A model generated the notes under the pieces. The model had not been told where the DNA came from, did no database searches, and saw nothing but the letters and a program-made list of their open reading frames with translations. From contig JBHGNT010000007.1 in assembly GCA_043228905.1 (NCBI GenBank), positions 12,834,001 to 12,898,000 of the forward strand: 64,000 nucleotides of DNA, read 5' to 3'. Source of the stretch: Azolla caroliniana (Eukaryota; Plantae; Polypodiophyta). Below are positions 33,887 through 57,853 of this stretch, piece by piece (the stretch's first letter is position 1; each line of letters starts with the position of its first letter). Made by a program: the position numbers and the translations under genes.

Positions 33887-36536
33887 ACGCACAAAGAGAA
33901 GGGGAAGAAGAAGATGTTGGAATACGACACCGGTAGTGAAGGGTCAGATCAGAACGAATCTGATGCCGGAAAGGAAGAAGGCGAATCTTTAGAAAGGAAG
34001 TCTGAACCGGTAAAGAAGGGACTCAAACCGGCTAACGAAAAGTTACGCCGGTCAACCCATCAGAAGAAAACCGTCATGAGGTACGGGTACAATGAATAAA
34101 TGGCGCATCACTATGCGTACATGACTAAGATGGCAGAAGTGCGTGAGCCGAAGAGCTACACAGAAGCAGCAAAAGACGCAAATTGGCATGCTGTTACAGG
34201 CATGACCATATAATATCTCGTGGTGAGAATTTACCGTTGTATTCTTTACACTCTTGTTTAACCCTCACACTTATCCACGTGTATAGAATACTACGGTAAA
34301 TTCTCACCACGAGATATTATATGGTCATGCGTATTCTATACACGTGGATAAGTGTGAGGGTTAAACGAGAGTGTAAAGAATACTATGGTAAATTCTCACC
34401 ACAGGATATTATATGGTCATGCCCGTAACACATGCTGCTAAGGAGGAAGAAATGCGGGCACTAGATACCAACGATACATGGGACCTTGTTGACCCTCCCT
34501 GACGGTGCAAATCGATCGGTTGCAAATGGGTGTACAAAGTAAAGTACAACGCCGACAATTCGGTCAACCGGTCCAAGGCCCGGTTAGTGGCGAAGGGATA
34601 CACATAGACCCACATAATTGACTACGATGAGACCTTTGCTCCGGTAGCGAAGATGACGACGGTTCGTGTGGTACTGGCGGTTGCTGCGGCAAGGGGATGA
34701 CATCTTCACCAAATGGATGCAAAGAATGTGTTTCTTCAAGGTGACCTTGAAGAACGGGTCTATATGATCCAACCCCCCCGGTTTCCAATCGGAGATGAAC
34801 AAGTTGGTAGTGTGCCGACTCAAGAAGTCGCTTTACGGTTTGAAGCAAGCCCCTCGAACTTTGAATGTGAAGATCACGCACCGGCTGCGTAAGATGGGGT
34901 TTGCGGCCTCAAAGTCCGACTCTTCATTGTTCATCCAGAATGGTCTGGACGGTCCGGTTTGCATTTTGCTTTATGTAGATGATTTAGTCATCACCGGACC
35001 CGGACTCCTTGCAATTGGCCGAGTGAAGTCCCAACCGTTGGACGCATTTGAAATGAAGGACTTGGGGGACCTTCATTATTTTCTTGGGATCGAGGTGATC
35101 TGAACCCCTGATGGCATATTGCTCTCACAACGCCATTATGTGTTGAATATGGTGTACAAGTTCAGCATGACAGAATGTCGACCGATCTCCACACCCCTGG
35201 ATCGAAACCTAAAGCTACGTCCTAACTTCGGCTCGACCTGCGATGAGAAATGGTTTCGAAAAATTGTCGAAAGCCTCATATACTTGACAATCACTCAACC
35301 TGACATCAGTTACTCAGTCAGAGTGATCAGCTAGTTCATGTAGAACCCGACCGTCGAGCACCATCAGTGCACACACCGGATACTCCGGTATGTTAGCAGC
35401 ACGAAGGATTGGGGACTGTTATACCAAAATGATATAGCTAGGAAGCTAGTCGGATATACTGATGTCGATTGGGATGGTGATGCATTGGATCGCCGATCCA
35501 CCTCCGGTTACATGTTTTCTCTTGGTAGAGTGGTTGTTGCGTGGAGCAGCAAAAAGTAGCCAACAGTGGCTCGGTCGAGCACTGAGGCTGAATACCGGGG
35601 CGCTACCATTGCCACCTGTGAAGCCATCTGGCTTCGGCGACTGCTACGAGACCTCCGGATCGAGGTGCCGACCCCAATCCTGATTTATTGTGACAACGTA
35701 AGCAGCATACATCTCGCCAAGAACCCTGTATTCCATGCTCAGACAAAGCACATAGAAGTGCATTATCACTTTGTTCGCGAGCGGGTCCTGAGCAGTGAAG
35801 TTGAACTTCGGTAAGTTCACAAGGATTGGCAAGTTGCTAACATCTTCACCAAGCCCCTCGGATCGAACAAGTTGCAGCATTTTTCGAAAAGATGCTCGGC
35901 ATTCAGCATCTCGATGTGCCGCACTTGAGAGGGAGAACGAGAACGAGAACGAATGGCACCAGACAAGGAGCTAGAGAGGAAGAAAGAACCAAGGGGGGAG
36001 ATAAGCATAAAAAGGAAGTCGAACCGACCGAAGGAATCGGCACATCCGAACAAGTCGGAGCAAGCAACAATGGAGGCAGAGTCAAGAAGGACAGAGCCGA
36101 CCAGAAGAAGGCCAAGACCCGAATGTGGTCCGATGTGGTGAAGGGCCTAAAAACGGAAGACGAGTTGGAAACTACCAACTCGGACAAGAGCTGGAATGAA
36201 TTGGAGGAAGCTTATTCGGTTCCAGATTCGGAGAAATCGGATCAACTAAAGGCCAAGCGGATGAGAAGGCAATGGAAGTCGACACTGACACGGAGGAACC
36301 GATGGATCGACAAGCGCAGGAGTCATAACAGCAAAGGAGCTGAAATGGGCATGTTGAGCAGACAAGCCGACCAAGGAGGTCGATGTGCGCAATACCGGAC
36401 GGGTCACGGGAAGCGGAACCGAACCGGACAAGGAGTGCGAGCAAGCCGGGAGGACGTCAGAAGGAGTCGGAGGAAAGGATCGGCTACTGGAGACACTAAC
36501 ACCACGATCCGACCTCAATGTGAGGTTGAGGGGGAG
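33887..36536 (+). pseudogene. Copia E RT-RNase H and charged 3' extension
   Basis: KKSLYGLKQAPR, LLYVDDL, ARSSTEAEY, CDNVSSI, KHIEVHYHFVRE. Confidence 0.92.
34192..34430. mobile_element. 239-bp palindromic (foldback/MITE-like) insertion
   Basis: TGTTAC...GTAACA ends; perfect 5-bp TSD CATGC; internal A-B-A'-B'-A' inverted-repeat structure. Confidence 0.9.
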
Positions 36537-37063: not shown

Positions 37064-37480
37064 ATGGACAGAGGAATGGCAAGTTCACTTCTGACGAAAA
37101 AGCTCGACCAGAGCAACTATGCATCCTGGTCATATAAAATGCACCAATACCTATTGGGGCATGTATATTGGAGCTATGTGGAAGAAACCAACGAGGTAGC
37201 ACCGGAACCGGCACACAAAGACTTCCTCATGTCCGGTGTGCATGATTGGATGCTCAGCTACATCAAGGATGCAAAAACGCCAACAGAGGCCTGGGGAAAT
37301 CTTCCGAAGATTTTCCCAACAAGTACCATAACCCGTAAGTTGCAGCTCTGATAGGAGTTGAACAAAATCCGGCAAAGAGATATGCAGGTTACGAACTACA
37401 CCACTAAGATAAAGGAGATTTGTGACGCGCTCAGGTCCATCAATGTGATGGTGGACGAAGATGAGATTGTCTAGATCTGT
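37064..37480 (+). pseudogene. Copia gag of the tandem unit, truncated at a PLE-derived insertion
   Basis: MDRGMASSLLTKKLDQSNYASWSYKMHQYLLGH. Confidence 0.88.
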
Positions 37481-38281
37481 TCATGTGTTTTTGTTGATCT
37501 TCCAGCCGGTACAAGGAGTGCGAAACAGTGAAATCATTGATGGGTTGTAGATAAGTCGAGAGGGAGAAGAGACCACCAAAATTGATTTGAGCTCACCCGA
37601 ATTGTAGACAAAACTTGGTGTAGGCGAGGATTAGACGAGATAAAGGGAAGGGAGAGGGAGATGAGGGATCAAAACACTAATAATAAAACTCTAATTAAGA
37701 ATAAAACACTAAATAAGATTAAAACATACCCATATGCTTGAGAGAGAGATAGAGGGATTGAACAAAACTAATATTCATTAAGATAGGGTTTACAATGAGA
37801 TTAGGGGAAATGGGAAGGGCCACGAGCAAACTAGTTTCGCCCCCTATGGGGCTCAGCAGTGGTAAGTGGTCTTTGGGGTATGATGGTGTTTATATAGGGA
37901 GGTTTAGGAGAGGCATTAGAAAAATGAGAATAAGGAGTGTTGAGTGGAGGTGTGTTGAGTGGAGGTGTGCTAATGGGTATGATTGAAAAGGGGAAGGAAA
38001 GAAGAGAACGCTATATAATATAATGAGGGGGAGAGGATTTAATGTCAAGGGGTAATAGTGGGTGTTTAAAAAAATCTAAGGGGATGAAAAGGTAACAATA
38101 AAGGCAAAAATGGGAAACAAAAGGGGAGAGTAAGGGAGGTATAGAACTAGAGAGAGGGGAACTTAAAAAAAATGAAGAGGGGAAAAGAAGAAAGGGAGAG
38201 AGAGAGGGAGAGAGGGAGAGAGAGGAGTGATTGGTTATAGGGAAGAGAGTGGAGAGAGGGGAACTTAGAAAAAAGGAAGAA

Positions 38282-38328
<47 letters not shown>

Positions 38329-38788
38329 TGATTAGTCATAGGGAAGAGAGTGGAGAGAGGGGAACTTAGAAAAAAGGAAGAGGGGTAAAAGAAGAAAGGG
38401 AGAGAGGGAGAGAGAGAGGGGTAGGGAAAAGAGAAAAGGGAGGGATATGAATGAATATAAGAGAAAGTAAGAGACGATTAAAAGGAAACAAGGATTGGAA
38501 AAACCATTAGAGGGGGGCGAGAAATACTAAAGTAGACATTAAAATTAAATTGAAGGGGCTAAAAATAAAAAGGCTAGAAAGTAAAAAATCTCAAGGAAAC
38601 AAATGGAGAAGGTTAGGGAAAAGAGAAAAGGGAGGGGTACGAATGAACACAAGAGAAAGTAAGAGAAGATTAAATGAAAAATCAAAATAACATAAAGTAA
38701 ATTGCAAAAGGTGGGATTGGAAATAGGAGAGGGTGGGGCAAGGGTAGAGTTGAAATTAGGAGGAAGTGTGGAGATGTAAGCTCGTGAC
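37481..38788 (-). mobile_element. Non-coding Penelope-like derivative carrying a hammerhead ribozyme
   Basis: 37481-37718 is homologous to 54183-54420; pyrimidine-rich sense strand like the PLE UTRs; hammerhead at 37818-37871; no RT remnants. Confidence 0.65.
37818..37871 (-). ncRNA. Minimal type I hammerhead ribozyme (core variant CUGCUGA)
   Basis: Minus strand CCAC-UUAC-CA CUGCUGA GCCCC-AUAG-GGGGC GAAAC-UA-GUU UG-CUC-GUGG. Confidence 0.75.
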
Positions 38789-38789
38789 A

Positions 38790-39661
38790 AACACCATGTT
38801 ATGCAATAGAGAGTAGGGTTGAAGATACAACATTTCTAAAATGAATACAAAGTCCCAATTACCAAGTGTAGTCCCGGGTATATGAACTAAAAGAGAGATA
38901 AAGAGATAAAATGGAATGCATGGCTACTAAATGTAGTCTCATGCTTACAATAGTGTTGAGTGCTTGTGATGCAAGAGGATGGGCAAAAACCGATGATGTT
39001 GCAAACGCCACGTAACTCCTAGTGGGGGCACTCAACATGAACGAAGGCTCGACGAATGACGATGCGACCTCGATGTGGATGCCTATCCCCGATATGTACA
39101 CACACCAGGTAGAGGGAACACCTGGAGGTAGAGGGAACACGACCAACGGATCAAAGATCAATGCAAAGGGGACACGGTGAGCAGAGAACACCTGAGACAG
39201 AGAACACTTGAGAGAGAGAACGTGGTCGACAAAGAAGACCTAGAGGATCCAGATGGGTCTCGACAAGGAGAGTTTGCAGAGAATGTCCGAGAGAGAGAAT
39301 GCGGCCAACAAAGGAAAGGTCGATGCAACGAGGACACAATAGAACACCTGAGAGAGATGACGCAACAAGGACACAGTTGAACACCTAAGGTCGATGCAAC
39401 GAGGACACGGTACAACACCTGAGGTCGATGCAACGAGGACACAGTAGAAGACCTGAGCGTATTGTTGTTGCAGAGAGGACAAGATGAGCAGGGAATGCTT
39501 GGAGTTTGCAATGTGAGCAGAGAACGTGGAGAAACTTGTGCAGAAGTTGGAAGAGAGAGAGAGAGAGAGAGAGAGGTACGAACCTAGGGACTTAACGAGT
39601 AGAAGAGGGAAGGAAAGAGTGAGAGAGAGAGGAGGTACGAACCTAGATAATCATCAAGTGT

Positions 39662-39702
<41 letters not shown>

Positions 39703-39844
39703 CCAATTGACAGTTCGAGATAAACCTTTGAGTCAAGAGAGAAAAATAGACAGAGAGACAGAGAGAGTGGGAGAGTGACAGACAGACAATCTTCATGATT
39801 GATTTGACTACTCAACTTCTTATACATTTAAGACCTCCTTACAA
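38790..39844 (-). repeat. Second copy of repeat X
   Basis: 39100-39844 is collinear with 16670-17335. Confidence 0.75.
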
Positions 39845-40990
39845 CCATTTCATCCTCATCCACCGGCATATTGATGTATCCCAAGGCGTCACATATTTCC
39901 TTGATTTTGGTGGTGTAGTGATCATTGTCATATCCCTTTCTCGGATATTGTTGAGCTCTTGACGGAGCTGTGTTGAGCAAGCAAGCTCAATTGGATCCAG
40001 ATCGGCTGAATAAGCTAGAGTTGGTTCGGTATCCGGATCGGGGACTGGAGATCCGGATACTGATCCGGTGTTCGGATGATATCCGGAGCCGGATCGGATT
40101 GAAACCGGTAGGCCGTTAGAGGCCTACGGATCCAACCTAGTGATAGTGATAGTGATAGTCGCTCATGTGAGCATTGAATAAAAGTGCTCTCTGAGCACAT
40201 TCTATGTACAGAATATTGAGAGTATTATTTTGAATAGAGTTTTATGTTCTGCTCTCTCTCTCTCTCTCTTGTTTATGCTTATTCTCTATGTTAAGCTTCC
40301 ATTAAACCTTCTTCTCTTTACTGTTACTATCCAACAGAGCCAGTTTGGCATAAGCTTATGCACGCTAACTTTCACAGGTTGCAACTTCTAGGGCCATTGT
40401 ACTCGTGACAAAAATCTTCTTCAGATTTTCGTAGGCCTCTTTCAGCGTCATTGCATCTTGACATCTAATCGTGCACATAGGATCAAGGCAGTACAAGACT
40501 CGTCGCTTGCTACCACGCCGAAAAATCCTTGTGTGCCGGCTCTGGTGCTACTTTGTTTTCTCCATGGATGTAACTCCAGTAGCCATGCCCGAGTAGGTAT
40601 TGGTGCATCTTGTACTCCCAAGATTCATAGTTGCTTATGTCCAAGTTCTCTATTGGAAGAGCACCACCCATTCCTTTGCCCATTTTCTTCTTGTCGGTTC
40701 TCGACCGGTGCTTAGGGTTCATCTGTGTTTGAAACGCTTGTCGGCAGCAAAGGATTCTCAACCCTCGCGCTCTAATACAATGTAAAGATTAACGTGTGGA
40801 AGCTAAATAGAACTCAACCGGCTCAGCTAGATAACAATAGAAAAACACAGAGAAACAATGGATGAACACACAAAACACTTAAGAGAGAGAGAGAGAGAGA
40901 GCAAAAGACTAAAAATCTCAATTGAAAATAATACGTTCTCTGTACATACAAGTGTGCTTAGAGAGCACTTTTATACAAGTCCTGAAGAAC
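39845..40990 (-). mobile_element. Minus-strand copia 5' end (partial LTR 40781-~40990, degenerate iMet PBS 40769-40780, gag), interrupted by a solo LTR
   Basis: Minus-strand gag MGKGMGGALPIENLDISNYESWEYKMHQYLLGHGYW; PBS TTGTATTAGAGC. Confidence 0.8.
39971..40376 (+). repeat. Solo LTR of the copia E family
   Basis: TGTTGAG...TTCACA; degenerate TSD AGCTG/GGTTG; host gag continues on both sides. Confidence 0.85.
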
Positions 40991-41002
40991 AGGTAAAAAC
41001 CG

Positions 41003-42015
41003 ATGGATAAAGGAATGGCTAGCTCGCTTCCGACGGAGAAGCTCGACAGAAACAACTACGCATCTTGGTCCTACAAGATGCACCAATACCTACTCGGGCA
41101 CGGTTACTGGAGCTATGTCGACGGAGCAAATGACATAGCACCCAAATCGACACACAGAGATTTCTCGATTTGGGAACAGTCGGCGAGTAGAGTATTGTAC
41201 TGCTTCGCGTCTTGTGTGGGCGAACAGCTCCTAAGCTACATTCAGGATGCAAAAATGCCAAAAGATGGTTGGGGAAATCTGAAGAAGATTTTCGCCGCAA
41301 AGATTACAGCTAGAAACTTCAACTCCGACAGGAGCTGAGCAACCTACGACAACACGACTTGTCGGTGGCAGACTACACCTCCAAAATCAAGGACATTTGC
41401 GACTCTCTGGCCTCCATCGATGTGAATATCGAAGAAGCCGATATGGTGCAAATCTGTCTCGGAGGTTTGGCGTCAAAGTTCGGAGCGTTCCGAACTGTTG
41501 TGTGTACACGGGAGAATACGCCGTCATTTTTTGACTTACAGTAGATACTCCTTGTAGAGGAGAACCATGTCGGTGCGTCAACAAGTGCACTCACTGACAG
41601 CCAAATGTTGTACACGGAGGCGGATTGGCCCCGTGGGCGTGGTGGACGAGGCAGGTCGGCTCGCAATGATAGCGGCCGGCAAGAGCATGAACAAAGGCAC
41701 AAAGAAAGTGCCAATATCAATTCCAGACCATCCACAAGGAGGGGGAGTCAAGGCGGCGGCGGAGGCCGGCAAGCAAAGGTTGACACGGAATGCTAGTACT
41801 GTGGTAAAAAGGGCCACAAAGAAAACGAGTGCTGGAAGAAGCGCGTCGATTCGGACAGATCCAGATCCGGCAAGGCTAGTAGAGAGAACCGGCAATACTC
41901 ACACTACACAGAAGGATCGAGAGGATCCAAAACCAAAAAAGCCGGTAAAGGGCCAGCCTTGGTGATGAAACACGAGGCTAACTCTATGAAGAAGACCACT
42001 TCCGAATCAAAGGAG
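41003..42015 (+). pseudogene. Ty1/copia gag fragment without LTR
   Basis: MDKGMASSLPTEKLDRNNYASWSYKMHQY; Zn knuckle YCGKKGHKENEC. Confidence 0.88.
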
Positions 42016-42529
42016 GCGATTTGGAGACCCTGATATAGCCCTCAAATCCCTTTTCCAGGAGCCATCGGCGGAGGGCTGCAGAGATAACAATCGTCATTGG
42101 AAGTGAAGAGGGTTCGTGGGGGTTGGGCGATGTCTGTGGATTTGGGAAGGCTCAAGCTCTGTGATCAGAGGAAGAGCGAGGGGAGTAGGAAGAGCGATGA
42201 GAGCGCGGAGATTGAGCAGAGTGAGGGGAGTGGGAAGAGCGATGAGAGTGAGAAGAGGTACAGGTTGAGGGTTGTTTTCTGTAATGTGTAGAAAACCTTC
42301 TATTTTCTTCTTTTTGTGCCCTAGGGTTCATTGGTTTATGAGCCATCGTGGTGCCGCGTGTTCTTGCTCTAGAAGTTTGTACATGCATTGAGTCCTTTTA
42401 ATAGCGTCGCTATCTTCTCTTCTTCTTCTTCTTTTTCTTTTCTTTTCTTTTTCTTTTTGTAACGATTAAGTACAATAGTACTTTTACACTATAGTACAAG
42501 TAGGTCTCTATAATTACTCCGTGGATTCT

Positions 42530-45500
42530 CCGGCTTTGTCTTGTTCGGCGAGGAACGGGTTAGGTGGCGTAGGCCCCATGTAGGGTTTTAAGTGAAACCC
42601 ATTCACCTTTTGTCATAGCATTTCTCCGGCCAAGGTGCCAAGTTGAAACGTGTTGTTTTCCGCTCCAACTATCTAGTATGGGCCTATCCATCAGAATCTT
42701 AATTTTACTGGCATTTGCCCCATTCATGTTTGAAAAACTAACACCGCTTTCCCAACCGTAAAATACTTTTCATGCACATGCCGATGTCGGTCCATGAATG
42801 CTTTGCGTCACCGCTGAATTTGTTCCAATATGGCCATACTGTGTAACCGTGTTTCGCCTAGTTCTAACAGTTGTTGTAGCCACATTTGTTCAGATTTGTC
42901 CTCTAACAGCTGGTCTCGTACTTGAATCCGCAGACTGGGTACCTGGAATTTGACTGGCATTACGGCCTCCAGCCCAAATGCTAGCCTGAAAGGCGTGGAT
43001 TGTATGCTGGTCTTATAGCTAGTTCAGTATGCCCATAACGCGTTGTGCAATTTGGTATCCCAATCTGTTCTATTCTCATTGACTATCTTTTTGAGGATAG
43101 TTTGTAATGTTTTGTTCGTGGATTTGGCCAAGCCATTTGCCTATGGGTAATACGGCGTACTCTTTTTGTGGACCACGGTGTAGTGTTGGGTTAGTTCGTT
43201 GATGACTGTATTTAGAAAGTGACTCCCTTGGTCACTGATGAGCTCAATAGGGCAGCCAAAACGACACCAGATATGTTCGTAAAGAAATTTTGCCGTGACT
43301 GCCGCGGTATTTTCGCGTAGTGCTTTCGCTTCTACCCACTTGGTGCAGTAATCCGTAGCCACCAAGATATACTTATTGCCGGTTCAGACAACCGCCGGTG
43401 TAAACGGCCCCACAAAATCGAGCCCCCACTTTTGGAAAGGATCCAACGGCAATACCGGTTGATGTGGCATTCTCGCGACTTCCGTGGGTTGGCCCATCCG
43501 TTGACATAAATTGCACTGTTTGCAATATTCATACGCATCCTTTTGCATAGTCGGCCACCAAAGTCCTACTTGCCAGATTTTCTGGGCCGTAACATCGCCT
43601 GCGTAATGTGCTACCGCCATACCACAATGAGCTTTGCATAAAACCGTTGCCTTCTCATCCTGCCGTATTCCGCACCTCCAGATGTCGTCACTGCCTTTGT
43701 GATATAGAACGTCTTTGACTAAACAGAAATTATGACTCTAGACGGCCAGCCGTTTTTTCTCATCCGTCCTTAATTGTGGTGGAGGTAACCCCGTGGTCAA
43801 AAAGTAGGTCATTTCCATCCACCACCGATCCGGAAAAGTCTTTTCTATTCTTGTTGCTAAAGTTGCTACTCGCAGAATGTCCGCATCCGGAAAGTCGTCA
43901 TCATCCTTTTGCGCCATTTCTCCATTATCTAATCTGCTCAAGAAATCCGCCACCGCGTGTTGCGCACTCAGTCGGTGTTGAATTACAAAGTCGAATTCTT
44001 GGAGCAACAACATCCATCTAGCCAATTTTCTTGTCAGTACATGTTTCTCCACCAGATATAACAATGTCGTATGATCCACGTGAAACGTGAATTTTCGCCC
44101 TAGCAGATAATGCCGGAATTTATTGATGTTGTATATCATACCCAACACTTCACGTTCCGTTGTGGAATAGTTACACTCAACCGTTGATAGTTTCTAACTG
44201 GCATAGTACACTGGTTAGTACCAATTCGGCTCCGTGAGCTACATCAGCACACTACCTATTGCTATATCCGAGGCATCCACAAAAACGTGAAATGGTTTCG
44301 CCCAATCTGGTGGTTGTACAACCAATGCCTGCGTTAGCATTGTTTTTAGCGCATCTTACGCCTTTTCTTCCGTTGCTATCCATTTGAAAGGAGTACGGTG
44401 GACAGCGGCATGCAATGGTGTGGCGAAATCCGCTAAATAGCGTATCATCCAACTGTGCCATCGTATTTGTCCCAGAAACCGATTGAGTGCTTTGGCATTT
44501 GTCGCCGTCTTTGCGTGAGTAATCGCGGAGATTTTGTTTGGATCTACCGCTATCCCCTCCTTACTAACTATGTGGCTGAGGAGGGCTCCACTAGTGACGC
44601 CGAAGGCGCATTTGGCGGGATTCAGGCTTAAGCGTGAAGTTCGGCAACACTCTAGGCAAAGCTGTAGATGCATAAAATGTTCGGCTATTATCCCATACAC
44701 CGCAAAATTGTCTAAAAAGACCTGCATGAAGGCGGGTATATATTCCCCAAAAATCTCCGTGATTGTCCACTGAAATGTAGTCGGCGTCGTCTTTAGCTCG
44801 AACATCCCAATCCGTGACAAACGTCGTTTTCTCTTGGTCGTTGGGATGCATGCGTACTTGATTGTACCCATTGAAGCCATCTAGAAAGTTGTACATGTCA
44901 TGCCCTGCGACTGCATCCAGTACGTTGTCGGTAAAAGGTAAAGGGAACACATATGTATTGGTTTCGAATAGTGGAATGATTTGGGGGTGCTCGTCCAGGT
45001 ATGCTTCCAACTCTGTATCCTCCACCCCATCCAGCATATTTATATCTTCCGCATATAATGGTGTTATCCCCTTGGGTTGTGTCGTCATTTCCTCTATGGG
45101 TACGCGAACCTCGGTGCGTCCTCGGCGAAAACTAATGCACTTATGTTGCCAGCTTTGTTTGATATTCGCCGAACAAAGCCAAGGTTTGCCAAGCAGCATT
45201 GGATACGCTCCCGGAGCATTGACGGTGAGGATTACCGCCGAGATGTCAAAACAATGTTCGCCAATAATGATGCCTAATTTTCGGATTAAGCCTAAAGGCC
45301 AAATTGAGTTGGTATCTGCCATGCGAAGCCAAAACGAGCAAGTTTCCCATTCTGAAATTCCCAATTGTTCTCATGTCTTCGCGTTAATTACATTGACGCC
45401 AGAGCCCCCGTCAATTACGCATCCTGTGATTTCCTGACCGCGTAATACCAACTTAATAGCTGGATTGTGGTGATCCACCATCGTTGGTCCATTGCTGGTG

Positions 45501-46737
45501 TCCGTAAAATTGGCGGAGATGCTGACCCCAAGTTTGCACATTATGTGATCCTCTACAGCTTGACGGAACCATGGAACTAATTGAAGTAGTTTCTCCATGA
45601 TCAGTGTTATTTCACAGCCTGCCAGTGCCTGCCATATGGGATCCGGGGATATTATGTCTTCCTCCAATGGCCCCACATTGTTTGTGGACTCCTGCCGCAT
45701 GCGCTCCATATTGGCCGCATTCACTTTTTCGACCCATGCTTGGGCCATCTTACGTACCTCATCTTGGGCGGCCCAATCAACATTTTTTGTTTGTTGCCTT
45801 GTCGTAACTTGATGAACTTCCGCCATAATTGTATTGACGGCGGGGCCCTTGCCCTTACATAGTGGACATTGAGTGGCATAATGTTCGGGTTGTTGGCAAA
45901 CGAAACAATGGATGTTGGATTCGCCTTTCTCGACAGTCGATGGCGTGTTCCTTTCCCCAGGTGTGGCTTGCTCCTCCTGGTCTTGGTTTATTCTTCTGAA
46001 ATTCCGTGGTGGTTGTTGTTGGTACCAGCGCAACTCCTGGTGTCAGTCATCTTCCGAACTTTCGTCGTAACATCGTTGGTCCCTATACTATCGATGTTTC
46101 CCGCGAGGCCCATTGAAGCCACCACATTTGTTTGCTGAACAGTAGTTTTCGTAATGGCGCCCGCCTTTATTATATCTGCGGTTGCCCCAGTAGTCTTCGT
46201 CCTCCGGCTCTTCTTCCTCAGAATCGTTGTTATTCCGGTGATTCCGGTAGTGCCGGTCATCGCGTGGATTCCGATCCGTATATCGGGGTCGTTCTTCTTG
46301 GCGCCTTTGATCATTATGGCGAGATGGTCGTTGTGTTTCTACGCTTCGTACTGTGGGCGTGGGTTTGTTCAGCATATTGTACTCACACTACTCGACCGTG
46401 TGTGCTTTCAAGTGACAGATTGGGCAGTGGATTCGCATGTTGCATTCCACTACGGAATGCCTAGAATTGAGGCAAATCGTGCATTTGTTTGCCTGGCGAA
46501 AATGTCGTTCCTCATCCTAAGGTAACGCTTGTCGTAATGAGGACATGGAAAACCTTTCCTTTTCTTCATCCAGCTCGAGCTGTAACGATCGCTCTATGAC
46601 CATATCGGTTGTTTCTCTTCATACTATTTTTGTTGAGTGTCGTCCATATAGGTCGTCGTAAGGCTGCCATAAATGTCTCCCGAGCCTTGTCCTCTATCGG
46701 ACCCCATTCTAATTTCCGCCGCAGATTTTGGAAGCGT
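42530..46737 (-). pseudogene. Degenerate gypsy gag-pol of the A/C family, with a deletion before RT
   Basis: Minus-strand CFVCQQPEHYATQC, VIDGGSGVN, FLDGFNGYNQV, PFQKWGLDFVGP, LISDQG. Confidence 0.92.
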
Positions 46738-46860
46738 TGTCATGGCGATTTTCGGCTACGGTGTGAAACCAAGTGAGACGAATAATCCAAGGATGTGCAA
46801 CATTGCACACGCACGTAGCAAATAAGCCTAAGTCCTAGTGGCACTTGAGTTCATACAGAG

Positions 46861-46928
46861 GGGTGCAAGCAAGGTTTGAACCTTGCACCTCTAAGATACA
46901 AGATGTTTGCCTTACCACTAGGACAACT
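46861..46928 (-). promoter_or_regulatory. tRNA-like Pol III A/B-box unit 1 in the J LTR (copy at 48895-48962)
   Basis: Minus strand TGTCCTAGTGGTAAGG ... GGTTCAAACC. Confidence 0.65.
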
Positions 46929-47222
46929 ATCATATAATGTAGATTTTATGTATTTCCTTTTCATATACAAATTATAGATGAAACAACCATAGAAAACCAT
47001 GTGCACAAAACCATGGTTCTAAACCCATGGATTGTGCATGTCATAAGCATGTCCCCAAAACCACGGTTCTAATGAAGGATGGAATCGGCAAGGAGGAACT
47101 GGTAAGGAGACACGGTAAGAACCGGATCAAGTAGAACCGGCAAGAGCCGGATAAAGAAGGCCGGTGAGAGTCTCTCACCGGATGAAGAGACAAATTTGTA
47201 AATAGAAGAAAAGATTGTTACA

Positions 47223-47290
47223 TGCATAGGGCAGGATTCGAACCCTATACCTCAATGTTAACGATTTTTAAGCCTTACCACTATACTAGC
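47223..47290 (-). promoter_or_regulatory. tRNA-like Pol III A/B-box unit 2 in the J LTR
   Basis: Minus strand TAGTATAGTGGTAAG ... GGTTCGAATCC, followed by TTTT. Confidence 0.7.
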
Positions 47291-49099
47291 ATATTATGAA
47301 TTGTAAAGTTATACTAAACTTTATCCCATGTAAATATTCTAAATATGCATGGTACAAAAAGTTATTCATGCATACACACTCGAGTTAAAAGAAAAGATGG
47401 GATAGGAAGCTAATCATGCACATGCAATGTGCATGAAAACTAAAGTTAGGAAAAGCATGATGCTTGCATGTGATAAACTTAGACTCTTCCAACACTATAT
47501 AAGGAAGAGAGAAAGATGTATATGTGGTTGTTTTTTATAAGGATTGATTAATACAAAATATTCGTGGGATTCACGATTTTACCATCTAATTCTCTCTTAC
47601 AATCTAAGTATCCATTAATACATTATACTCGTGGGATTCACGAGTTTCGTATCTCCATTTTGAAATCTATTCGAAACAAAACTATCTCATATTCTTCTTC
47701 TCCTAGTCCAAAACCTCAGTGGTTCCCACCCGACTCACGCAACGATCCGGAGCCGAAAGGCACAACACAAGTGGTGAACCCGACGTGAAGATGAAGGCCC
47801 AACACAAGGAGGAAGAAGATCAAGGACGAAAGGATATCCCCACACCTATTCTAGAGACTTCGGCGGTTGTGCACGTGCACCAACGTGAGATCGGAGAGAC
47901 GGAATGTGTCGACGGAAAAGCAGAGGACCAGAAGGGCGATGAGGAAGACAAGGTAAATGTGCATGAACGAAGGGGTTCCTTCACACCGGTTCCAGAGACT
48001 TCGACAGTCGAGACCGTGTGTCGACATAAGACTGAAGATAAAGGAGGTGGCGGAGAGGAGACAATATGGCTCGAGGCGAGCATACACGGAGGGAAGGATG
48101 TGGCTGATGAGGAGGCCAAGGATGAAGCCGTCGTTGAGTTTGATGGAGATGTGGCATGCGCGAAGGAAGGAAGAGTTGAGAACCGGTCGAACCGGTCGAA
48201 CCGGAAGACAATCCGGCCGGGATTCCGGCCCGAATGAAGGAAGATCCACATGGGAGCCGATCGACCGGGGAAATCGATCAGACGATCCTGATCCAAAAGC
48301 GGGCTGACCTGGACGGAATCAATCGGTCGAGCCCGACTTGGCGAAATGCGAATGCAAACGAAGGCCAACCGAGCCGAGAAGCGATCTGTAGAGACCGATC
48401 CGGACAAGGGCAAACCCGGCCTAATCGGAGATCGACACGAATGATCCACAACACCTAGTTGAAGACGGTGAGCGCGAGGAGTGGCCTGGAGTTCAATCGA
48501 AGGACACGCGCGGTGGATGAAGGAAGAGTGGTCGGATTGACGACATCATTTGGTAGATCTACTACAACCAACCTGGGAAGAAGGTGTGAGCGCCGGATAT
48601 GGTGGATCGGGTGGCTACGGCGGTTTGGTTGGAAAGATTGGGCATACTTGAAGTGGAAGACGAAGTTAGACGAGCATGCGGAGGAACTCGGTTGATCACC
48701 ATTGCCAAAGATCTCACCTCTTCAACTTTCTCGACACATACCGGAGGATGTGCGGGTTTGGTGGGGGTGGATGTCGTGGCAATTTTCAGCTATGGTGTGA
48801 AACTGAGTGAGACGAATAAACCAAGGATGTGCAACATTGCACACGCACTTAGCAAATAAGCCTAAGTCCTAGTGGCACTTGAGTTCATACAGAGGGGTGC
48901 AAGCAAGGTTTGAACCTTGCACCTCTAAGATACAAGATGTTTGCCTTACCACTAGGACAACTATCATATAGTGTAATTTTATGTATTTCCTTTTCATATA
49001 CGAATTATAGACGAAACAACCATAGAAAACCATGTGCACAAAACCATGGTTCTAAATCCATGGATTGTGCATGTCATAAGCAAAACCATGTCATAAGTA

Positions 49100-51422
49100 A
49101 TCGGATGACACTCGACGAACCGGCTGGATATGGACAAGAAACTGAACCGACCAAAGAAGAAGAAGAAGAAGACACCAGAACCAGACAAGATCCTGAATCG
49201 GATTCAAATTTGGAACAAACAGAGGAACCGGGATATCCTCTCCGAGAGAGAAGAGCCCCCCAAAGATTTCTGGATGCATAGCATGTGTTGCTAACCGATG
49301 AGGGGGAGCCGGAAAACTTCGAAGAAGGAAAGAGAGACACCCACAACTGCAAGTGGTTGAGTGCCATGTAGGATGAGATGGATTCCCTACATGAGAACCA
49401 CACATATGAACTGACGGAGTTGCCGAAAGGAAGAGAGCACTCCGGAACAAGTGGGTGTACAAGTTGAAACCAGGAGATGCCAGAAATCCACCCAGTTATA
49501 AGGCCCGAATCGTGGTGAAGGGCTTCCAACAAAAGAATAGAGTGGACTTCGATGAGATCTTTGCCCTAGTAGTAAAGATGACATTCATCCGGACGGTATT
49601 GGGCATAGCGGCAAGCATGGACCTCGTGGTAGAGCAACTGGACGTCAAGACGGCATTCCTACATGGCGACCTCGAAGAAGAGATCTACATGCATCAATCG
49701 GAAGGATTTGAGAGGAAAGGGAAGGAGCACTTGGTGTGCTGGCTGAAGAAGAGCCTATACAGACTAAAGCAAGCTCCCTTGCAATGGTACCAGAAGTTCA
49801 ACTCCTTCATGACTGACCAAGGGTACCACAAGACGCAGGCCGATCACTGCGTGTTTGTGAAGAAATTTGATGGAGGAGATTTCCTGATACTCCTCCTATA
49901 TGTGGATGATATGTTGATCGTCAGACGAGACCAAGGCAAGATTTGGATGCTGAAGAAGGCTTTGAACCAGACCTTCTCAATGAAAGACTTGGGGCCAGCA
50001 AGATAGATATTGGGAATGCACATCATTTGGGACCGGTCAAAGAAGTTGTTGTGGTTGTCACAGGAGAAGTATGTGACAAAGGTGCTTCAACGGTTCAACA
50101 TGTCAGAGGCGAAACCGGTCGGATCGACACTTCTGGCAAACTGCAAGTTATCCGGAAAACAAAGCCCGAGGGACAGAGGCGGAGAAGACGAATATGATGA
50201 AGATACCATATGCCTCTACCGTCGGGAGCTTGATGTACGCGATGATATGTACCCAACCAGATATCGGATATGCAGTCGGAGTGGTGAGCCGGTTCATGAG
50301 CAATCCCGGAAGAGAGCACTGGAACGCGGTCAAGTGGATACTCTGGTATCTGAAAGGCACATCGAGTATGTGCCTCCGGTTTGGCTCTGGAAAACCCCAA
50401 CTTGATGGTTTCACGGATTCGGATATGTCGGATGATGCAGATATTAGCCGATCGACATCCGGATATGTCATGACTTATGCAGGGGGAGTTGTTTCATGGC
50501 AGTCAAGGCTGCAAAAGATGGTTGCATTGTCAACCACGGAGGTAGAGTACATGGTAGCTGTAGAAGCCGGCAAGGACAAAATCTGGATGAAGGACTTCAT
50601 CGGAGAGCTAGGGATCCAACAGGAGGAATACCGGCTCTAATGTGATAGTCAAAGCACCATCCACCTTGCAAAGAATGCAGCCTACCATTCCCGGATGAAA
50701 CATATCCAGCGGAGGTACCACTGGATCCGGGAGAAAGTAAAAGATCAAGAGTTTGTGTTGATGAAGATCCACACGGAGGAGAATGGGTCGGATATGTTGA
50801 CCAAGGTGTTGACAACCGACAAGCTGGACGTGTGCCGAAAGCGGATCGGGCTGATGAGACATCCCATGCCGGAGTGAAAGGGGAGATTGTTGGGAAATCG
50901 GTCTCTTCGGATGGGACCCGATGATGAATGAAGAGGACTTGGTGAGAATTGGAAGAGATTCGGAAATCGGAGGAGACGCGGTGAGAACCAGAAGAGAGAC
51001 ATATTTGTAAATATGTCTTGACCAAGCCTATAAGCTATATTTGTAAATAGCCCTAAGTTCATATAAGTATAAATATGACTTAGGGCAATCACTTTACGGG
51101 TGTAGTTGTATTGTTGTACAGAGAGAGACAGAGACAGCGAGAGAGTGTGAGATACAGAGAAATACTTTGTTGTAACCACCGGTTGGCGAAGAAACAGAGC
51201 TTGAGGTCATTGCCTCCAAGTCTCTGATTGTACCCCCTTTTCTTCATAGTGATAGTTGGAGTCTGTGGGCTCCCGTGGTTTTTCCCATTCAGGTTTTTTC
51301 ACATAAACATCTTGTGTACTCTCTTTTATGTGTACTTCTATTCCCATTCCTGTGTTGCACTCTTATCGAAGTAATTCAAGACTCGGTCGTGGCTGAGCAA
51401 TATTCCGCGCTATTTCCTAACA
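49100..51422 (+). mobile_element. 3' half of a Tnt1/Tork-like copia element (RT-RNase H, PPT, 3' LTR 50888-51422)
   Basis: QLDVKTAFLHGDLEEEIYM, LLYVDDML, VSWQSRLQKMVALSTTE; PPT GAAAGGGGAGAT; LTR TGTTGG...CCTAACA. Confidence 0.9.
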
Positions 51423-51750
51423 CTTTGTACTATTGTAGTAAGTTAGTGACGGTGTTGTTTTCTTTCTTAAGAAAGCCATTGTTTGAGAGAGAGAGAAAGA
51501 AAGAAATATTAATCTCTTCAAAGTTATCTCAAGATTCGAACTCTTGACCGCTTGTACTATAGTCAAGTGTTACAGCACATCCAAATACATGGTCAAGTAT
51601 TATTTGAGAGAGAAAGAGAGAGAGAGAGAGAGGTTATTCTTTCCCATAGATTAAAAAGCAAGAAATCCCATTTTTATTTACTCACATACATGCATACATG
51701 GTCTGCATATTTGCTTTTTGCTTAAAAGCGTAGAATTTCTTCCTTTCACA

Positions 51751-51809
51751 ATGCGATGGGTTCAGTCTGCAGTGGGAGATTTTCGAGGTATCCCACCATC
51801 GCCGCGAAG
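51751..51809 (+). CDS. GPA3: Exon 1 of a host kelch-repeat protein, GPA3-like
   Basis: ATG..MRWVQSAVGDFRGIPPSPR then a GT donor. Resembles, from memory, the N-terminus of plant GPA3/AT2G36360-type kelch proteins. Confidence 0.75.
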
Positions 51810-52151
51810 GTCTGTTGTTAACTATCGATTATCTTCTGATTTGGCCGCTGAATCTGCAGTTTTTTACTGTATTTCAGCTTTCTGCTTTACTTTCATTTAA
51901 TTTAATTTTCATTTTTGCATGTGATTTCTCTTTAGGTTGATGCTGCTAATGTTCTTTCCCTCCCGTTATTTCTCGCATTTGATATTTCTGCGTTAGTCGA
52001 TTTATTTATTTAACTGAGCTTTCTGTGAATACTTTCATTGACGCAAACTTTTTGCATCCCTTCTTATTATACACATACACGCCTATTTGAATTGATCTGA
52101 TTTTTCAACATTTTATTTATTTGTTTTCTATCTGATCTAATTTGTGAGCAG

Positions 52152-52249
52152 TGGGCATTCGGCTGTCAAAGTGGGAAGATCGTATCTACTAATATTTGGA
52201 GGCCTCTTCGAGAAGAAGTTTCTGAATGATCTCACTGTATATGACATTG
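52152..52249 (+). CDS. GPA3: Exon 2 of the GPA3-like kelch-repeat gene
   Basis: CAG acceptor and GT donor; splices in frame to give SGHSAVKVGRSYLLIFGGLFEKKFLNDLTVYDI (kelch SGH..FGG motif). Confidence 0.8.
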
Positions 52250-55030
52250 GTATGCCCTCTTTACATTAACGTTATATTAAATTAATGTCTGTAGAAGTCC
52301 AAATTGGCTTATGATGGAACCAAATGTTACATCCGAGTGAATCTTATAGAAGAATGGTAGAAGAAGAAAAACTAGATAGTATCCAAGTTTTAACAATAGG
52401 CAAAAGCCATATTCCTTCTAATGACTCTTTCGAACAGTAGGGAGTTTCGTTCTCCAATAACCCCAACCTCACATTCAATGGGGATAAGGGCTGTATGTTG
52501 AATAAAGACATGAGAATGTCAATGGTGATAGTAGTGGCCCGGCCAATGTTGCTTGCAGAAGAAGGAACAAAATATCAAATGCAGAACAGAGAAACAAGAG
52601 TAAGAGCAAAGAAAATTATGATATTATATGCTACCAGTGTGATAGGAAAGGCTATAAGAAGCTTGAATGTAGGTACTTCAAGAAAGAAGTTGAACGTAGA
52701 GAAGAGGCTCTCGGGGACCTATATGTATCCCTGCCTTAAAACATTTCAATTGCCAAGGTCCTTATCTGGTTAGTAACTGTCTACCAAACACAATTACTGT
52801 ACAAGGAATGCTAACTGAAATTTCGGGTTCATGACAAACCAGTCATCAATCTTCATCATCCCAACAAGCCATGCAAGACCTAGCAACTTGGTTCCAAGGG
52901 GTATCTGTTGAGAATCAAGCTCAACTTGTGTGAACATGTACTTATGAAGAAAAGGACGATGTGTGAAAAAGTGTGTGAGGACACTTTATTGTAATCCGTG
53001 TAGTTGTCGAGTGTTAGTGTGGTCAAAGAATATTAGATATTCTTATGACAAAATCGTACTCAAGTGAATATCTTGGTTAGATTTCACCAACACATTTAAT
53101 AGGGCAGTCCCTTGAGGACTTCATTTAGTTTAGTTGATGATCTTTAGTTAATTAATATAGCTCTCTTAAGTGCATAAGCTGTCATCCCCCTACTGTGTGT
53201 CTTCTTATTTTTTGGTTATTCTCTCTAATCCTTCTCTTGCGTATACACTCACTCTCTCTCTCTCTCACTATGCTTCTGAATACTCAACTCTACTAGAGTT
53301 CGATTCTTTACATGGTATCAGAGCATAAGGGTTAGAGATCCTTCACTGAGTTCTACCATTGAAACTGTGTGAGCAGCTAGAGACGTTGTTCAAAACTTGC
53401 TATCGTCGCTGTAGTGTTGCACAGCAAGAGGCTCACGTTAACAGGATCATATGAATCAAGCTAAATCAGAAAAATGAATGCACAGATGGGTAGCACACTT
53501 CTAACAGAGAAGCTGGATAGGCACAACTACGCATCTTGGGAATATAAGATGCAGCAATACCTAGTTGGGCAAGGGTATTGGAGTTATATCGAGGGAGCTC
53601 AAGAAACAGCCCCCGATATTACAAATCCCAACTACCCCACATGGCAGCAAGGCACCAGTAGGGTGATGTATTGTTTGGCAACATGTGTGCAAGATCACAT
53701 GTTAAGCTATATTCGTGATGCGAAAGCCCCAACAGAAGCGTGGAAAAACTTGAAGAAGATTTTCGCGGCGTCAACCACAGCCAGAAAACTTCAACTCCGG
53801 CAGGAGTTGAACAATATTTGGTAGGGGGATATGTCCATGACGGACTATACCCTCGGATCAAAGACTTATGCGATACCCTTGGCTCCATCAATGTCGCAGT
53901 TGATGATGACGAGATGGTGCATATCTGCCTTGGCGGCCTTGCACAAAAATATGGCTCATTTCGAACTGCCATAACAACAAGAGAGAACCCCCCAAGCTTT
54001 TTTGACTTGCAATCCATGCTAATGGTTGAGGAGAACCATACACGGTCGAAAAGCACAACATCTGATGGGCAGATGCTATATACACATGATGATCTCGGTT
54101 GAGGTCACGGTCATGGTCGTGGAATTTGGGTGAGGAATGATTGAAGAAGAGGTGGACGATGTCCACAACAGTTTAATTCCTCTTCATGTGTTTTTATTGA
54201 CCTTCTGGCCAGTACAAGGAGTGCGGAACGGTGAAATCATCAGTGGGTTGTGGATAAGTCGAGAGGGAGAAGAGACCACCAAGATCGATTTGAGCGCACC
54301 TGAATCGTCGACAAAACTTGGTGTAGGCGTGGATTAGACGAGATAAAGGGAGGGGAGAGGGAGATGAGGGATCAAAACACTAATAATAAAACTCTAATTA
54401 AGAATAAAACACTAAATAAGAGTATCGGATTGTGTTGGACAGCCATCTCGTGCACCCTTCCCCCTCCCTATATGGCGCGCTGTTTGGGACTGCCCAAGGC
54501 AGCCGATAGACATTCGCGCCGTCCCTCCTTCCAACCCCTCATCCATGCTTACAACAGCCTCACCTCTCACGTTTTTAGAACCCTTACTCCCCTTTCTCTG
54601 TTCCCTCCTCACATCCCCCTTTGTCTTCATATGGAGGCAGTCTCTATCCTCCCCTCACCTCTCCCTCTCAATTATTTCCATATCTCATCCATGCCTCTGC
54701 ATTACTTCCCGATAATCTAACTCATGCCCCCCCCTATTTTGCCCCTAATTCACATAATACCCCTCCCCCTCCTTTATCTAATTTTCATTCGCCCCCCCCA
54801 CCTTTTTTTACCCCATTTGTTGAAAACCCCCCCTCTAACTCATACTCTACCCCTCCCTCGTATCTTAATAAACCCCCTTCTTATTATCCCCTATAATATA
54901 AAAACCCCCTTCACCCACCACACCACCCCTCCCTCCTATCCTAATCATAAACATTATAGAAATACACTACACCCCACTAATCCTCCCCCTACCACACACC
55001 ATAGGAACCCACCTTCTAGCCGACCAAAAA

Positions 55031-56987
55031 ATGACTAGCACGGCGTGCTAAGCGTGTTAACAAACACTTTAGACACGCTGTGCATCCTTGTAGACGCCTA
55101 TTTTATCTTCTTAATAGGACCACCTCCACCCCAGACACTTTTATGTGGCTAGGTAATACAAATACATCTTTCCCCTTCCGCCCATGCCAGAAAATATCCA
55201 ATAGTAATAAACTACAAAAAAAGTTTTGGAAACCGCTTAATGCTACCCTTCGAATAGAAAGTAAAATTCACAATTTATCTAAACACCCCCTCACAAATAA
55301 TGAAACACAATTGTTAAGCTTAGGACTCAAATACATTCTACCACCCTCTCTACCTTCCACTAATACTATCATTAAAGAATTTGCTAGTTTAAGTAGATCT
55401 TTACGTTTAAAACATTTCTTTAGAGACATGGACTCACACCCCCTTAATCCATTTAAACTACCAAATCCTAACTGGAATCCACCATCTCAATATCCCCATC
55501 TTGAAAATATTATTAAAAAACATGAAACCCTCCTTTTGTCTAAACTCCAACAACCTAAACTCAAACCCGTTAGGACACCATTTCACCTTCGCATAGCCCT
55601 TAAGAGACTTAGGAAAAACAACCAAATTATCATTCTTCCGGTTGATAAGAACATGGGAGTATGTGTTCTAGACAAAGATACCTATTATGAAAAAGCTATA
55701 AACAACCTCTCGGATACCACCACCTATAGAAAAGTAACCCATTTTCCATTAGAAGAACTCTTATATTGCCTTAATAGTATAGTGCAAAAAAATCTAGGAA
55801 CACTTTCCTTTATCGAAGCTAATTACATACTCCATAAACCCCTAAAGGGATATCAAGTATCTAATATTTACTTTCTCTCTAAACTCCATAAAACACCCAT
55901 TAGCTTTAGACCCATCTGTTCTTATATATAACTCGATATTCGAGCAAACCTCGAAATGGCTACATTTTCAACTTTTACCCATCCTAGTACTCCAAAAACA
56001 ATACCTAAAAGACTCACACTCCCTCATCGAGAAACTAGAACAACTAATCCCCCCTCCTAACAGTTTCATCTTCTCTTTTGATGTAGAATCCGTTTATCCT
56101 AGCATCCCCCTAAGTTAGGACTCGAAGCACTTCGCCATATCATCTCCCCACATTTTTCCTTAGCCAAGTCTAATCTTATCTATACCCTTAGCGCTCTAAC
56201 CCTAGAGTATCACTACCTAACCTTCGATAATCAAGTATACCAACAAATCAAAGGAACAACCATGGGTAGCAACTTCTCAGTTGTCTATGCATGCCTTTTC
56301 TTATCACACGTAGAAAACTCACAAACCACACCCCATCTCTTCCATTTTACTAGGTACATACATGATGCATTTGGGGTTTGGACAGGTACGAAACCCTAAC
56401 ACTTAGACTACCTTAGTTTCTATAGCCTTATGACCAATAACTCTATTATCCTTACGATCCATACACCCCCCACTAGGCTCCCTTTCTTGGATATTTGGAT
56501 CAATCTGAGAACTCTAAGTTCTCCTTCAATTGTTTCCAAAAACCATTAAATTCCTATCAATATCTTCCCTTCTCTTCAGACCATCCCATGCATGTTAAAC
56601 AAAATTTTATTTCGAACGAATTAAAACGTTACCTAGTTAGAGAAAGCACACCTATAGGGTACCTAGAAATGAAAAAACGTTTCTTCCTTAGACTCATTAG
56701 CTGAGGTTACCCACCCCATTTCATCCTTAAAGCCTTTAAAAAACATCCTTTCTCCCTTAGGAATACTCTCATCCATAAGCATAAAAACAAATGTTCCCTT
56801 GCTTAGGTACTCTAAAAACTCCCCTAAATTAGGCATCCACTCGTTTTTACAAGACTTACACGCCGACCTCAGCCTAGATCCCCAACTAAAAGACATTCCT
56901 AAGCCTTTCATATGTTGGACTAAGTCCAAATCACTCTATTATTATCTAGTCAAAACTAAATATATTAGATCCCCAAATCCCCATTAA
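55031..56987 (+). pseudogene. PLE reverse transcriptase; no C-terminal GIY-YIG
   Basis: IHNLS..LLSLGLKY, LRLKHFF, ILPVDKNMG, KLHKTPISFRPI, FDVESVYPSI, YQQIKGTTMGS, RYIHDAF (from YIDD), LPFLDI, QKPLNSYQYLPFSSDHP; stops after YYLVKTKYIRSPNPH. Confidence 0.88.
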
Positions 56988-57186
56988 AACATCACACTTA
57001 CTATGTATTGCTATCTATCTATTAGAACTAAATATAATAGATCCCCAAATCATCCCTTCCCATCAAACTCATTAGGCTATCCCTCTCTACATTCACTACC
57101 TCCCTAACTCCCACATCCTCCTTTATACACATTCAAAACCCCTCTCTCCCTCTCATCCATCCCCACCACTCCCCTTCTCTCTTCCC

Positions 57187-57467
57187 CGCCATCGTAGGTG
57201 CTTCCCTCGCTTCGGAGACATTTCCATTCTGGATCGACCTATGCTAGAGACAATATATCTAACTTGAGGATGTCACATGTGCCAAAAACCAGATTCCCTC
57301 ATTTCTTTTCTTTTCATGTTATTTACTTTTATATTTACTGTGTAGTATTTATTTTATTTTGATTTGTTCTTAAAGATGAGACAACACTTAAGATGTAATC
57401 TCTTATTTGGTCTTATAGGCCAGTTTGGCCTCTTAAAAGACGTTAATATATCTTTCTTTCTTCTTTC
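57187..57467 (+). mobile_element. 5'-truncated RTEX-like LINE 3' end inserted in the PLE 3' UTR
   Basis: Reverse complement of 60870-61180; (TTTC)n tail; flanked by TCTTCCC on both sides. Confidence 0.75.
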
Positions 57468-57504
57468 ATCTTCCCTTATATAAGCCTCTCACATTTTTGT
57501 ATAT

Positions 57505-57557
57505 GGTCTTTAGCACTGATTCGCTCATATAGAGCGAAACATGTTTGCCAAAAGACC
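57505..57557 (+). ncRNA. Minimal type I hammerhead ribozyme with a mutated core (CUGAUUC)
   Basis: GGUCUUU-A-GCA CUGAUUC GCUC-AUAUA-GAGC GAAAC-AU-GUU UGC-CA-AAAGACC. Confidence 0.72.
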
Positions 57558-57612
57558 TTTTCTTACATAAATTGAAATTTGAATTCTCTCTCTCTCTCTC
57601 TCTCTAATGCTA

Positions 57613-57853
57613 GAAGTCAACCCAGGGATACAAAAATGGGCTTCAGACCAGGACATAACAAAGGGGTTACAATTGATCAGGCAATGACAATTTGCCGTGC
57701 ACGTAGGCCTTGGCCCCATGGACCACGACCTCGACACCCTTGTCATCGACAGATAAAAGCCATTATCTCCCGCCATCGTAGGTGCTTCCCTCGCTTCGGA
57801 GACATTTCCATTCTGCATCGACCTATGCTAGAGATCTTCCAAAGACAAAAGTG
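57613..57853 (+). mobile_element. Internal fragment of the same RTEX-like LINE
   Basis: Reverse complement of ~61095-61338. Confidence 0.75.

Follow-up and report, generated by a model that had tools for sequence, protein, structure and literature searches.

Hammerhead motifs of the window

The window, meaning the whole analysed stretch of 64,000 nt of Azolla caroliniana DNA (contig JBHGNT010000007.1, positions 12,834,001 to 12,898,000), carries two hammerhead ribozyme motifs, designated motif 1 and motif 2, at the ends of the region 37818-57557, where both are embedded among nested Copia and Gypsy elements. The genome is 523 Mb long, with 22 chromosome-scale contigs and CCCTAAA telomere tracts. 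As judged from sequence, both motifs are real; they are canonical hammerheads of type I that have decayed, and they belong to Penelope-like elements (PLEs).

Motif 1, read on the minus strand from 37871 to 37818, has the core CUGCUGA at 37859-37853, stem II GCCCC/GGGGC, GAA, stem III ACUAGU, and U17 at 37829. Motif 2, at 57505-57557 of the plus strand, has the core CUGAUUC at 57516-57522, stem II GCUC/GAGC, stem III ACAUGU, and U17 at 57545. The first-pass annotation had described two motifs differing in sequence and keeping the hammerhead pairing, with these cores and stems and, in both, a GUU triplet and a stem I with a bulge, and all of this was read in the window letters as written. The intact-core pattern had 265 exact matches genome-wide and 0 in the reversed control, and 0 of 100 shuffled windows contained any match to a looser pattern, so the hammerhead motifs are not a product of chance. 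The looser pattern recognizes motif 2 within the window; motif 1 escapes it owing to a change in its own stem I. On folding, motif 2 had a z of -5.3, and motif 1 alone was unremarkable (z -0.5). An Rfam scan of the window gave no hammerhead match at E up to 10.

Family consensus and ribozyme class

The consensus was read from 207 copies, which are the distinct copies fetched and not the whole family, and the search pattern itself favours the letters of the core, GAAA, GUU, and the palindrome. Of these copies, 161 have the core CUGAUGA, 191 have GAAA as the second box, and 206 have a GUU triplet. In 202 of the 207, stem III is palindromic, as ACUAGU (171) or ACAUGU (31). Other variants are mostly C-to-T or G-to-A changes, and a TATA-like 8-mer lies 36-42 nt ahead of the core in 195 copies. 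The two window cores were each found in just 1 of the 207 copies, and therefore both window copies are decayed. They change conserved core positions, A6 in one and G8 and A9 in the other. Both copies are probably impaired, as the first-pass annotation had suspected.

A U-A pair of stem II is replaced by C-G in 6 of 14 aligned rows; 99% of the aligned cells are paired, and at one pair both sides have changed. Distally, stem I forms 6-11 bp in 12 of 12 representatives, and the orientation of this part flips between subfamilies (GGUC/GACC versus GACC/GGUC). According to PMC4209133, the canonical layout has a short helix III under a small palindromic loop with helices I and II in contact, and the minimal PLE hammerhead has a helix II of 7-8 bp, a short helix I, and helix III with loop 3 absent or reduced. 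In the Azolla family, a CUGANGA/GAAA core with an NUH triplet, three helices, an open helix I, and retained pairing correspond to canonical type I; helix II is 4-5 bp, helix I is extended and bulged, and helix III is 2 bp with a palindromic loop, which is not the minimal form. Of the earlier designation of the motifs as minimal type I hammerheads of PLEs with a palindromic stem III, the type, the PLE, and the palindrome stand, and minimal is to be replaced by canonical. Neither is this a family-specific variant, as had been proposed, since the same canonical layout was already reported in Selaginella PLEs by Cervera and de la Pena 2014 (PMC4209133). A family consensus without CUGANGA/GAAA, named beforehand, together with a lack of cleavage by a restored core, as what would refute the first reading, was not encountered, the family core being CUGAUGA/GAAA.

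Host elements in the window

Motif 1 belongs to a non-coding element of subfamily G (Table 1), which is inserted between Copia pieces and has a 3' end common to its relatives. No match to reverse transcriptase (RT) or to the first open reading frame (ORF1) of the autonomous elements was found by tblastn in 37480..39104. The relatives of this element retain pairs of pseudo-long terminal repeats (pLTRs) and a vestige of the start of ORF1. Motif 2 belongs to a dead element of subfamily F, in which the end of ORF1, an RT-coding ORF2 with stops and frameshifts (YIHD replacing YIDD), and a partial 3' pLTR with motif 2 are present. A tail of subfamily G is fused to the motif 2 element, and therefore the two families of the window are tied together.

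Table 1. Ribozymes, host elements, and associated signals located in the window (EN, endonuclease)
Feature	Position	Strand	Description
Motif 1	37818..37871	-	Canonical type I hammerhead, decayed core CUGCUGA; predicted cut between 37829/37828
TATA box TATATAAA	37889..37896	-	37 nt before motif 1 core
Subfamily G element	37480..39104	-	Non-coding, non-autonomous PLE derivative, ~1.6 kb; similar to L061, L064, L066
3'-terminal signal CGCACTCCTTG	37480..37522	-	With 4-bp hairpin and fixed 3' end; putative start of reverse transcription
Inverted subfamily G 3' tail	54180..54424	-	91% to 37477-37721; head-to-head with motif 2 element, ~54420
Subfamily F element	54420..57605	+	Dead, 5'-truncated remnant of autonomous EN-less PLE; 94% to L063 element
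Predicted -1 frameshift signal, ORF1/ORF2	55026..55083	+	AAAAAAT (relatives AAAAAAC) and long stem-loop
Unrelated repeat fragment	57185..57453	.	Within F pLTR, upstream of TATA; matches 60880-61177 inverted; F alignment gap
TATA box TATATAAG	57478..57485	+	38 nt before motif 2 core
Motif 2	57505..57557	+	Canonical type I hammerhead, decayed core CUGAUUC; predicted cut between 57545/57546

Around motif 2, one repeat related to 60880-61347 is present in two pieces, 57185-57453 and 57604-57851, with their order swapped and with a 66-bp duplication. Elsewhere in the window, an unbroken Gypsy-type gag-pol frame of 1819 aa (23563-29022) is surrounded by decayed elements, and a long palindrome at 34200-34420 is matched weakly by miRNA hairpin models, far under their thresholds.

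The autonomous elements

The RT search of the genome gave 135 matches, and in many of these a frame of about 660 aa is open. Intact copies encode an ORF1 product of 745-850 aa and, in an overlapping frame, the ORF2 product of 660-679 aa with the RT. ORF1 codes for a helical domain followed by a Pro/Asn-rich part; the model of the domain is all-helical with low confidence (pLDDT 57), and a homologue search with ORF1 gave two matches, both near-identical. In three ORF1 proteins (P0003, P0005, and P0007), Asn-Pro repeats are coded by CCTAAC-like DNA resembling telomeric repeats. At 15 of 15 distinct ORF1/ORF2 junctions in other loci, a long stem-loop comes directly after AAAAAAC, so that a -1 frameshift is predicted.

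The ORF2 product stops behind the thumb. A Pfam scan of 4 ORF1 and 5 ORF2 proteins gave no GIY-YIG match, with the genome unsearched for an endonuclease acting in trans. The RT is of the PLE type: its homologues carry PF28514 and PF26215, and many carry also GIY-YIG. In motifs A and B, the RT is a close match to Selagine1 as shown in Fig. S1 of Craig 2021 (PMC8557442). Proteins of Cryptomeria and Ginkgo are the nearest named relatives (40-42%), and in a quick tree of 46 database proteins they fall into one clade without GIY-YIG (SH-aLRT 99). A placement in Coprina is tentative, based on the motif comparison with Selagine1 and on this quick tree of database hits. A sequence search of PDB with the RT gave 0 hits. 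pLTRs, 5' truncation, and tandem and inverted copies are further PLE hallmarks seen in the family. By these sequence features, the hosts of the ribozymes are EN-less PLEs related to Selagine1 of Selaginella.

Other hosts were considered and rejected. PLE-X of the Naiad/Chlamys group does not agree with the CxC motif unconserved among five ORF2 proteins, the missing insertion-in-fingers domain, and the short spacing of motifs A and B, which is as in Selagine1. An LTR retrotransposon or a retrozyme is contradicted by PLE-like ends and by a partner ORF that codes for a PLE RT, and a plant LTR retrozyme by type I topology, variable 5' ends, and no regular target duplication.

Near-identical tandem arrays of whole units are present, with units of 5.58 kb (99.9-100% identity) and 4.67 kb (99.2-99.9%). 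One interstitial array of four 5.58-kb units (L129, L130, L254, and L255; contig C22, 8.945-8.969 Mb; 99.9-100% identity) keeps an unbroken 668-aa RT frame in three of its units, a sign of very recent activity. In Cryptomeria, eight copies of a related RT (cluster P0026) are mostly on small scaffolds of 15-52 kb, perhaps an indication that they insert into tandem repeats, e.g., rDNA or satellite.

5' ends at the predicted cut

The full-length element L136 starts at +2 past the predicted GUU/UGC bond. Copies were listed by their post-cut sequence with the upstream letters displayed, which gave unselected lists for six subfamilies, five of them countable; the listing patterns miss about a quarter of cut-site junctions. 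The ribozyme was absent upstream in 4/56, 1/61, 3/32, 5/22, and 0/13 rows, or 13/184 in total. Once two duplicates were dropped, 11 independent cut-site starts remained versus 1.7 expected (P about 2e-6), the background being 69 breakpoints in 281 nt from -290 to -10 among 218 scored copies. Fifteen 5' ends of these 218 copies lie at -4 to +3. As a control, only 2 independent 5' ends were found within the tail of about 200 nt among 39 subfamily A tails.

Seven loci (L149, L150, L152, L154, L233, L234, and L235) are whole insertions reaching from the cut to the fixed 3' end, and L155 has two such pieces in tandem. In L151, two subfamilies are fused head-to-head, each arm being placed at the cut, and three letters overlap. 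The cut end is joined to another tail in L068, L155, and L156. The independent cut-site junctions of L149, L150, and L155 are preceded by the same GTATT, possibly an untemplated addition.

Both window motifs derive from the pLTR hammerhead of dispersed EN-less PLEs, and we consider it quite likely that in intact copies the ribozyme cuts at GUU/UGC in vivo and that the cut RNA is copied into DNA. Several points weigh against this. Starts at the cut are a minority, about 6-7% of copies, and none of 13 was found in subfamily G, to which motif 1 belongs. The junctions spread from -2 to about +6 and in 8 of 11 a T directly precedes the site, so the exact breakpoints are blurred by this scatter and by microhomology. 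With the densest other bin as the background, P is 0.004. A U at position 17 makes a poor substrate for cleavage. The swap between the two palindromes happened once and counts as a single event, and dependence on a dimer rests on the palindrome. When two copies were co-folded, an intermolecular helix formed via the palindrome and the full double hammerhead did not, which is not decisive. The support for the predicted cleavage is indirect and comes from genomic 5' ends. All 17 sequencing runs listed are assembled contigs with small shares; four of them were aligned to L136, and, as data of this kind do not show RNA ends or expression, they weigh neither way. Finally, a lizard PLE did not require its ribozyme in vitro, and RNA ends at the ribozyme site were not found (PMC11167929).

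In another explanation, the conserved fold stalls the RT or favours template switching, the RNA stays uncut, and the accumulation of 5' ends is a structural stop. Copies also end at the other edge of the ribozyme, in a weaker second cluster of 9 ends at -31 to -46 (P 0.02), and therefore structure or transcription start also ends copies; the insertion of the lizard PLE in vitro without need of the ribozyme (PMC11167929) is in the same direction. An RT moving upstream would already meet stem I some 15 nt ahead of the cut; at the junctions analysed, at most two exact letters upstream of the bond are kept, with one end at -8 and one between -10 and -30, and the letters of the catalytic core are kept in all subfamilies while the stems change. 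A structural stop as the source of the cut-site ends is quite unlikely.

The pLTRs and the tandem arrays could also come from circles. Cleavage would then chiefly make unit-length RNA that is ligated to circles, and rolling-circle copying would give pLTRs and tandem arrays, with the cut-site starts as by-products. This was proposed in PMC4209133 and agrees with the near-identical whole-unit arrays (5.58 kb and 4.67 kb) and with 5' pLTRs that reach upstream of the TATA box (L063). The same structures are, however, accounted for by read-through transcripts and internal priming (PMC11167929), and the end-to-tail joins of L068, L155, and L156 fit template jumping. A ligated circle would restore an intact ribozyme and leave no trace in DNA, and nothing here shows one. 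Circles as the chief product are rather unlikely.

3' ends and genome distribution

All subfamilies terminate about 30 nt past a shared CGCACTCCT(T/C)G motif with a small hairpin, 10-20 nt before the ATG of ORF1. This shared fixed 3' end near the ORF1 start fits the internal start of reverse transcription in the lizard element PAc (PMC11167929). At the single fixed 3' end, the flank differs from copy to copy in most cases, and the flanks are mutually unrelated. Telomere-like repeats follow 2 of 202 ends with the 3' motif, a count that includes internal pLTRs, and neither is a terminal tract. On the 22 large contigs, all of them occupied, 178 of 197 copies lie more than 1 Mb from a contig end. 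Attachment to telomeres, as in Coprina or Selagine, was not found, with some contig ends inspected directly.

Several young PLE copies are inserted in a subtelomeric tandem satellite of 178 bp, which adjoins the CCCTAAA tracts of the telomeres; satellite loci of the L060 type are L067, L132, L138, L140, L249, L257, L259, and L260. The PLE copy at L249:3713, at the start of contig C7, has telomeric repeats as a direct cap, as in a healed break. The satellite copies would suit the explanation that these are ordinary telomeric PLEs of Coprina type, with the interstitial copies passively carried inward or inserted by the endonuclease of another element. Some tails carry CCCTAA-like repeats and the known relatives are telomeric (PMC4209133; PMC13159263). 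Against it, most copies keep a unique flank of their own at the one fixed 3' end, 15 of 197 are less than 500 kb from a contig end, where 4.6% of the length lies, and L249, the sole copy in contact with a telomere tract, is directed outward and has a break in ORF1. An ordinary telomeric origin is unlikely.

Within 6 kb, head-to-head pairs were 12 and tail-to-tail pairs 1. Of 130 scored junction pairs, among which 5' pLTRs and internal breaks are counted, 12 gave any target duplication, and several of these were internal or weak. Long duplications flank insertions at L235, L041, and L248, with lengths of 433 bp (99.8% identity), 68 bp (97%), and 60 bp (100%). Since the element has no endonuclease of its own, fusions are head-to-head, and targets are irregular, including the 433-bp duplication, priming at DNA breaks is the probable mode of insertion; an endonuclease borrowed from another element may act instead.

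Proposed mechanism

From the family, anatomy, dispersal, fixed 3' ends, and 5'-end excess at the cut, which were observed directly, we infer the following steps. Transcription would start at the TATA box of the pLTR, just upstream of the ribozyme, and a -1 frameshift would yield an ORF1-RT fusion. The RT may bind the CGCACTCCTTG-hairpin signal and initiate internally, 10-20 nt before the ORF1 ATG, with a free DNA end such as a break as the primer. Most RNAs would be uncut at the time of copying, and the RT would pass the ribozyme; on cut RNA it would run off at the scissile bond, followed by microhomology joining or a jump to another RNA. Cutting may need two ribozymes paired via the palindromic stem III, or the help of a protein, and so be partial. 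Non-coding derivatives such as the motif 1 element would borrow the RT.

In the wider scenario, to which we give about an even chance, a vascular-plant lineage of EN-less Penelope elements left the telomere and spreads genome-wide by patching breaks via internal RNA priming, and its hammerhead cuts in the germ line, with cut RNA, even a short piece from the cut to the 3' end, being retroposed. The genome would then record the activity of the Penelope ribozyme in fossil form and constitute a natural system of RNA-to-DNA insertion free of nuclease. The role of the Penelope hammerhead in vivo was called unclear by Craig 2021 (PMC8557442), and Frangieh 2024 reported that it is dispensable in vitro and that RNA ends do not match it. 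From the copies of five subfamilies that begin at the scissile bond, a precise prediction on this role can be made and tested. The genomic trace at the cut site would be evidence for cleavage in vivo, which RNA data for the lizard PLE (PMC11167929) failed to give. EN-less PLEs are described as mostly telomeric; in this plant, break-primed retrotransposition can be tested on copies that are young, intact, and dispersed and have a defined signal for priming.

Relationship to known systems

EN-minus PLEs of Selaginella moellendorffii (Selagine1; Coprina Sm1/Sm2) are among the most similar known elements, with nearly matching RT motifs A and B and the DKN motif (PMC4209133; PMC8557442). Selagine1-type and Azolla elements share also the lack of insertion-in-fingers and of GIY-YIG and a canonical type I hammerhead in the pLTR. 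Whereas Selaginella PLEs are telomere-associated, Azolla elements are on all chromosomes and have no telomeric 3' junctions. They further differ in having two ORFs with a predicted -1 frameshift, several non-coding subfamilies, and 5' ends at the cut; Coprina elements typically have one ORF, with exceptions (PMC13159263). Conifer EN(-) PLEs (Lin et al. 2016, via PMC9033089) are close as well, as the nearest named relatives of the Azolla RT are those from Cryptomeria and Ginkgo without GIY-YIG.

Poseidon PAc of Anolis carolinensis also has a hammerhead in the pLTR and 3' ends that are fixed at an AC-rich stem-loop close to where the ORF starts, and an internal start of reverse transcription was shown for it; unlike Azolla elements, it has a GIY-YIG endonuclease, one ORF, and no RNA ends at the ribozyme site (PMC11167929). 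PLE-X of Chara and Selaginella is EN-less with canonical hammerheads and genome-wide in Chara, but belongs to the Naiad/Chlamys group with a CxC motif and insertion-in-fingers domain (PMC8557442).

Non-coding ribozyme carriers that need an autonomous partner are known as animal non-LTR retrozymes (bioRxiv 10.64898/2026.07.22.740005) and plant LTR retrozymes (PMC4918200). Those of plants are LTR elements whose ribozymes are mostly of type III (PMC4918200), and Azolla non-coding units differ from retrozymes in their length of about 1.6-3 kb and the vestige of the ORF1 start. R2 with an HDV-like ribozyme (PMC3774820) resembles the Azolla elements in that the ribozyme cut is the 5' junction of the inserted copy, but both ribozyme and element class are others, and in Azolla just a minority of copies start at the cut.

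In the literature searched, which did not include Arkhipova 2017, Gladyshev and Arkhipova 2007, or Lin 2016, neither PLE insertions that start at a hammerhead cut nor a fern-like genome with dispersed elements of Selagine type were reported. The ribozyme and the kind of element are known from other systems, and what sets the Azolla family apart is its EN-less dispersal, its layout with two ORFs, and the likely trace of cleavage in the genome.

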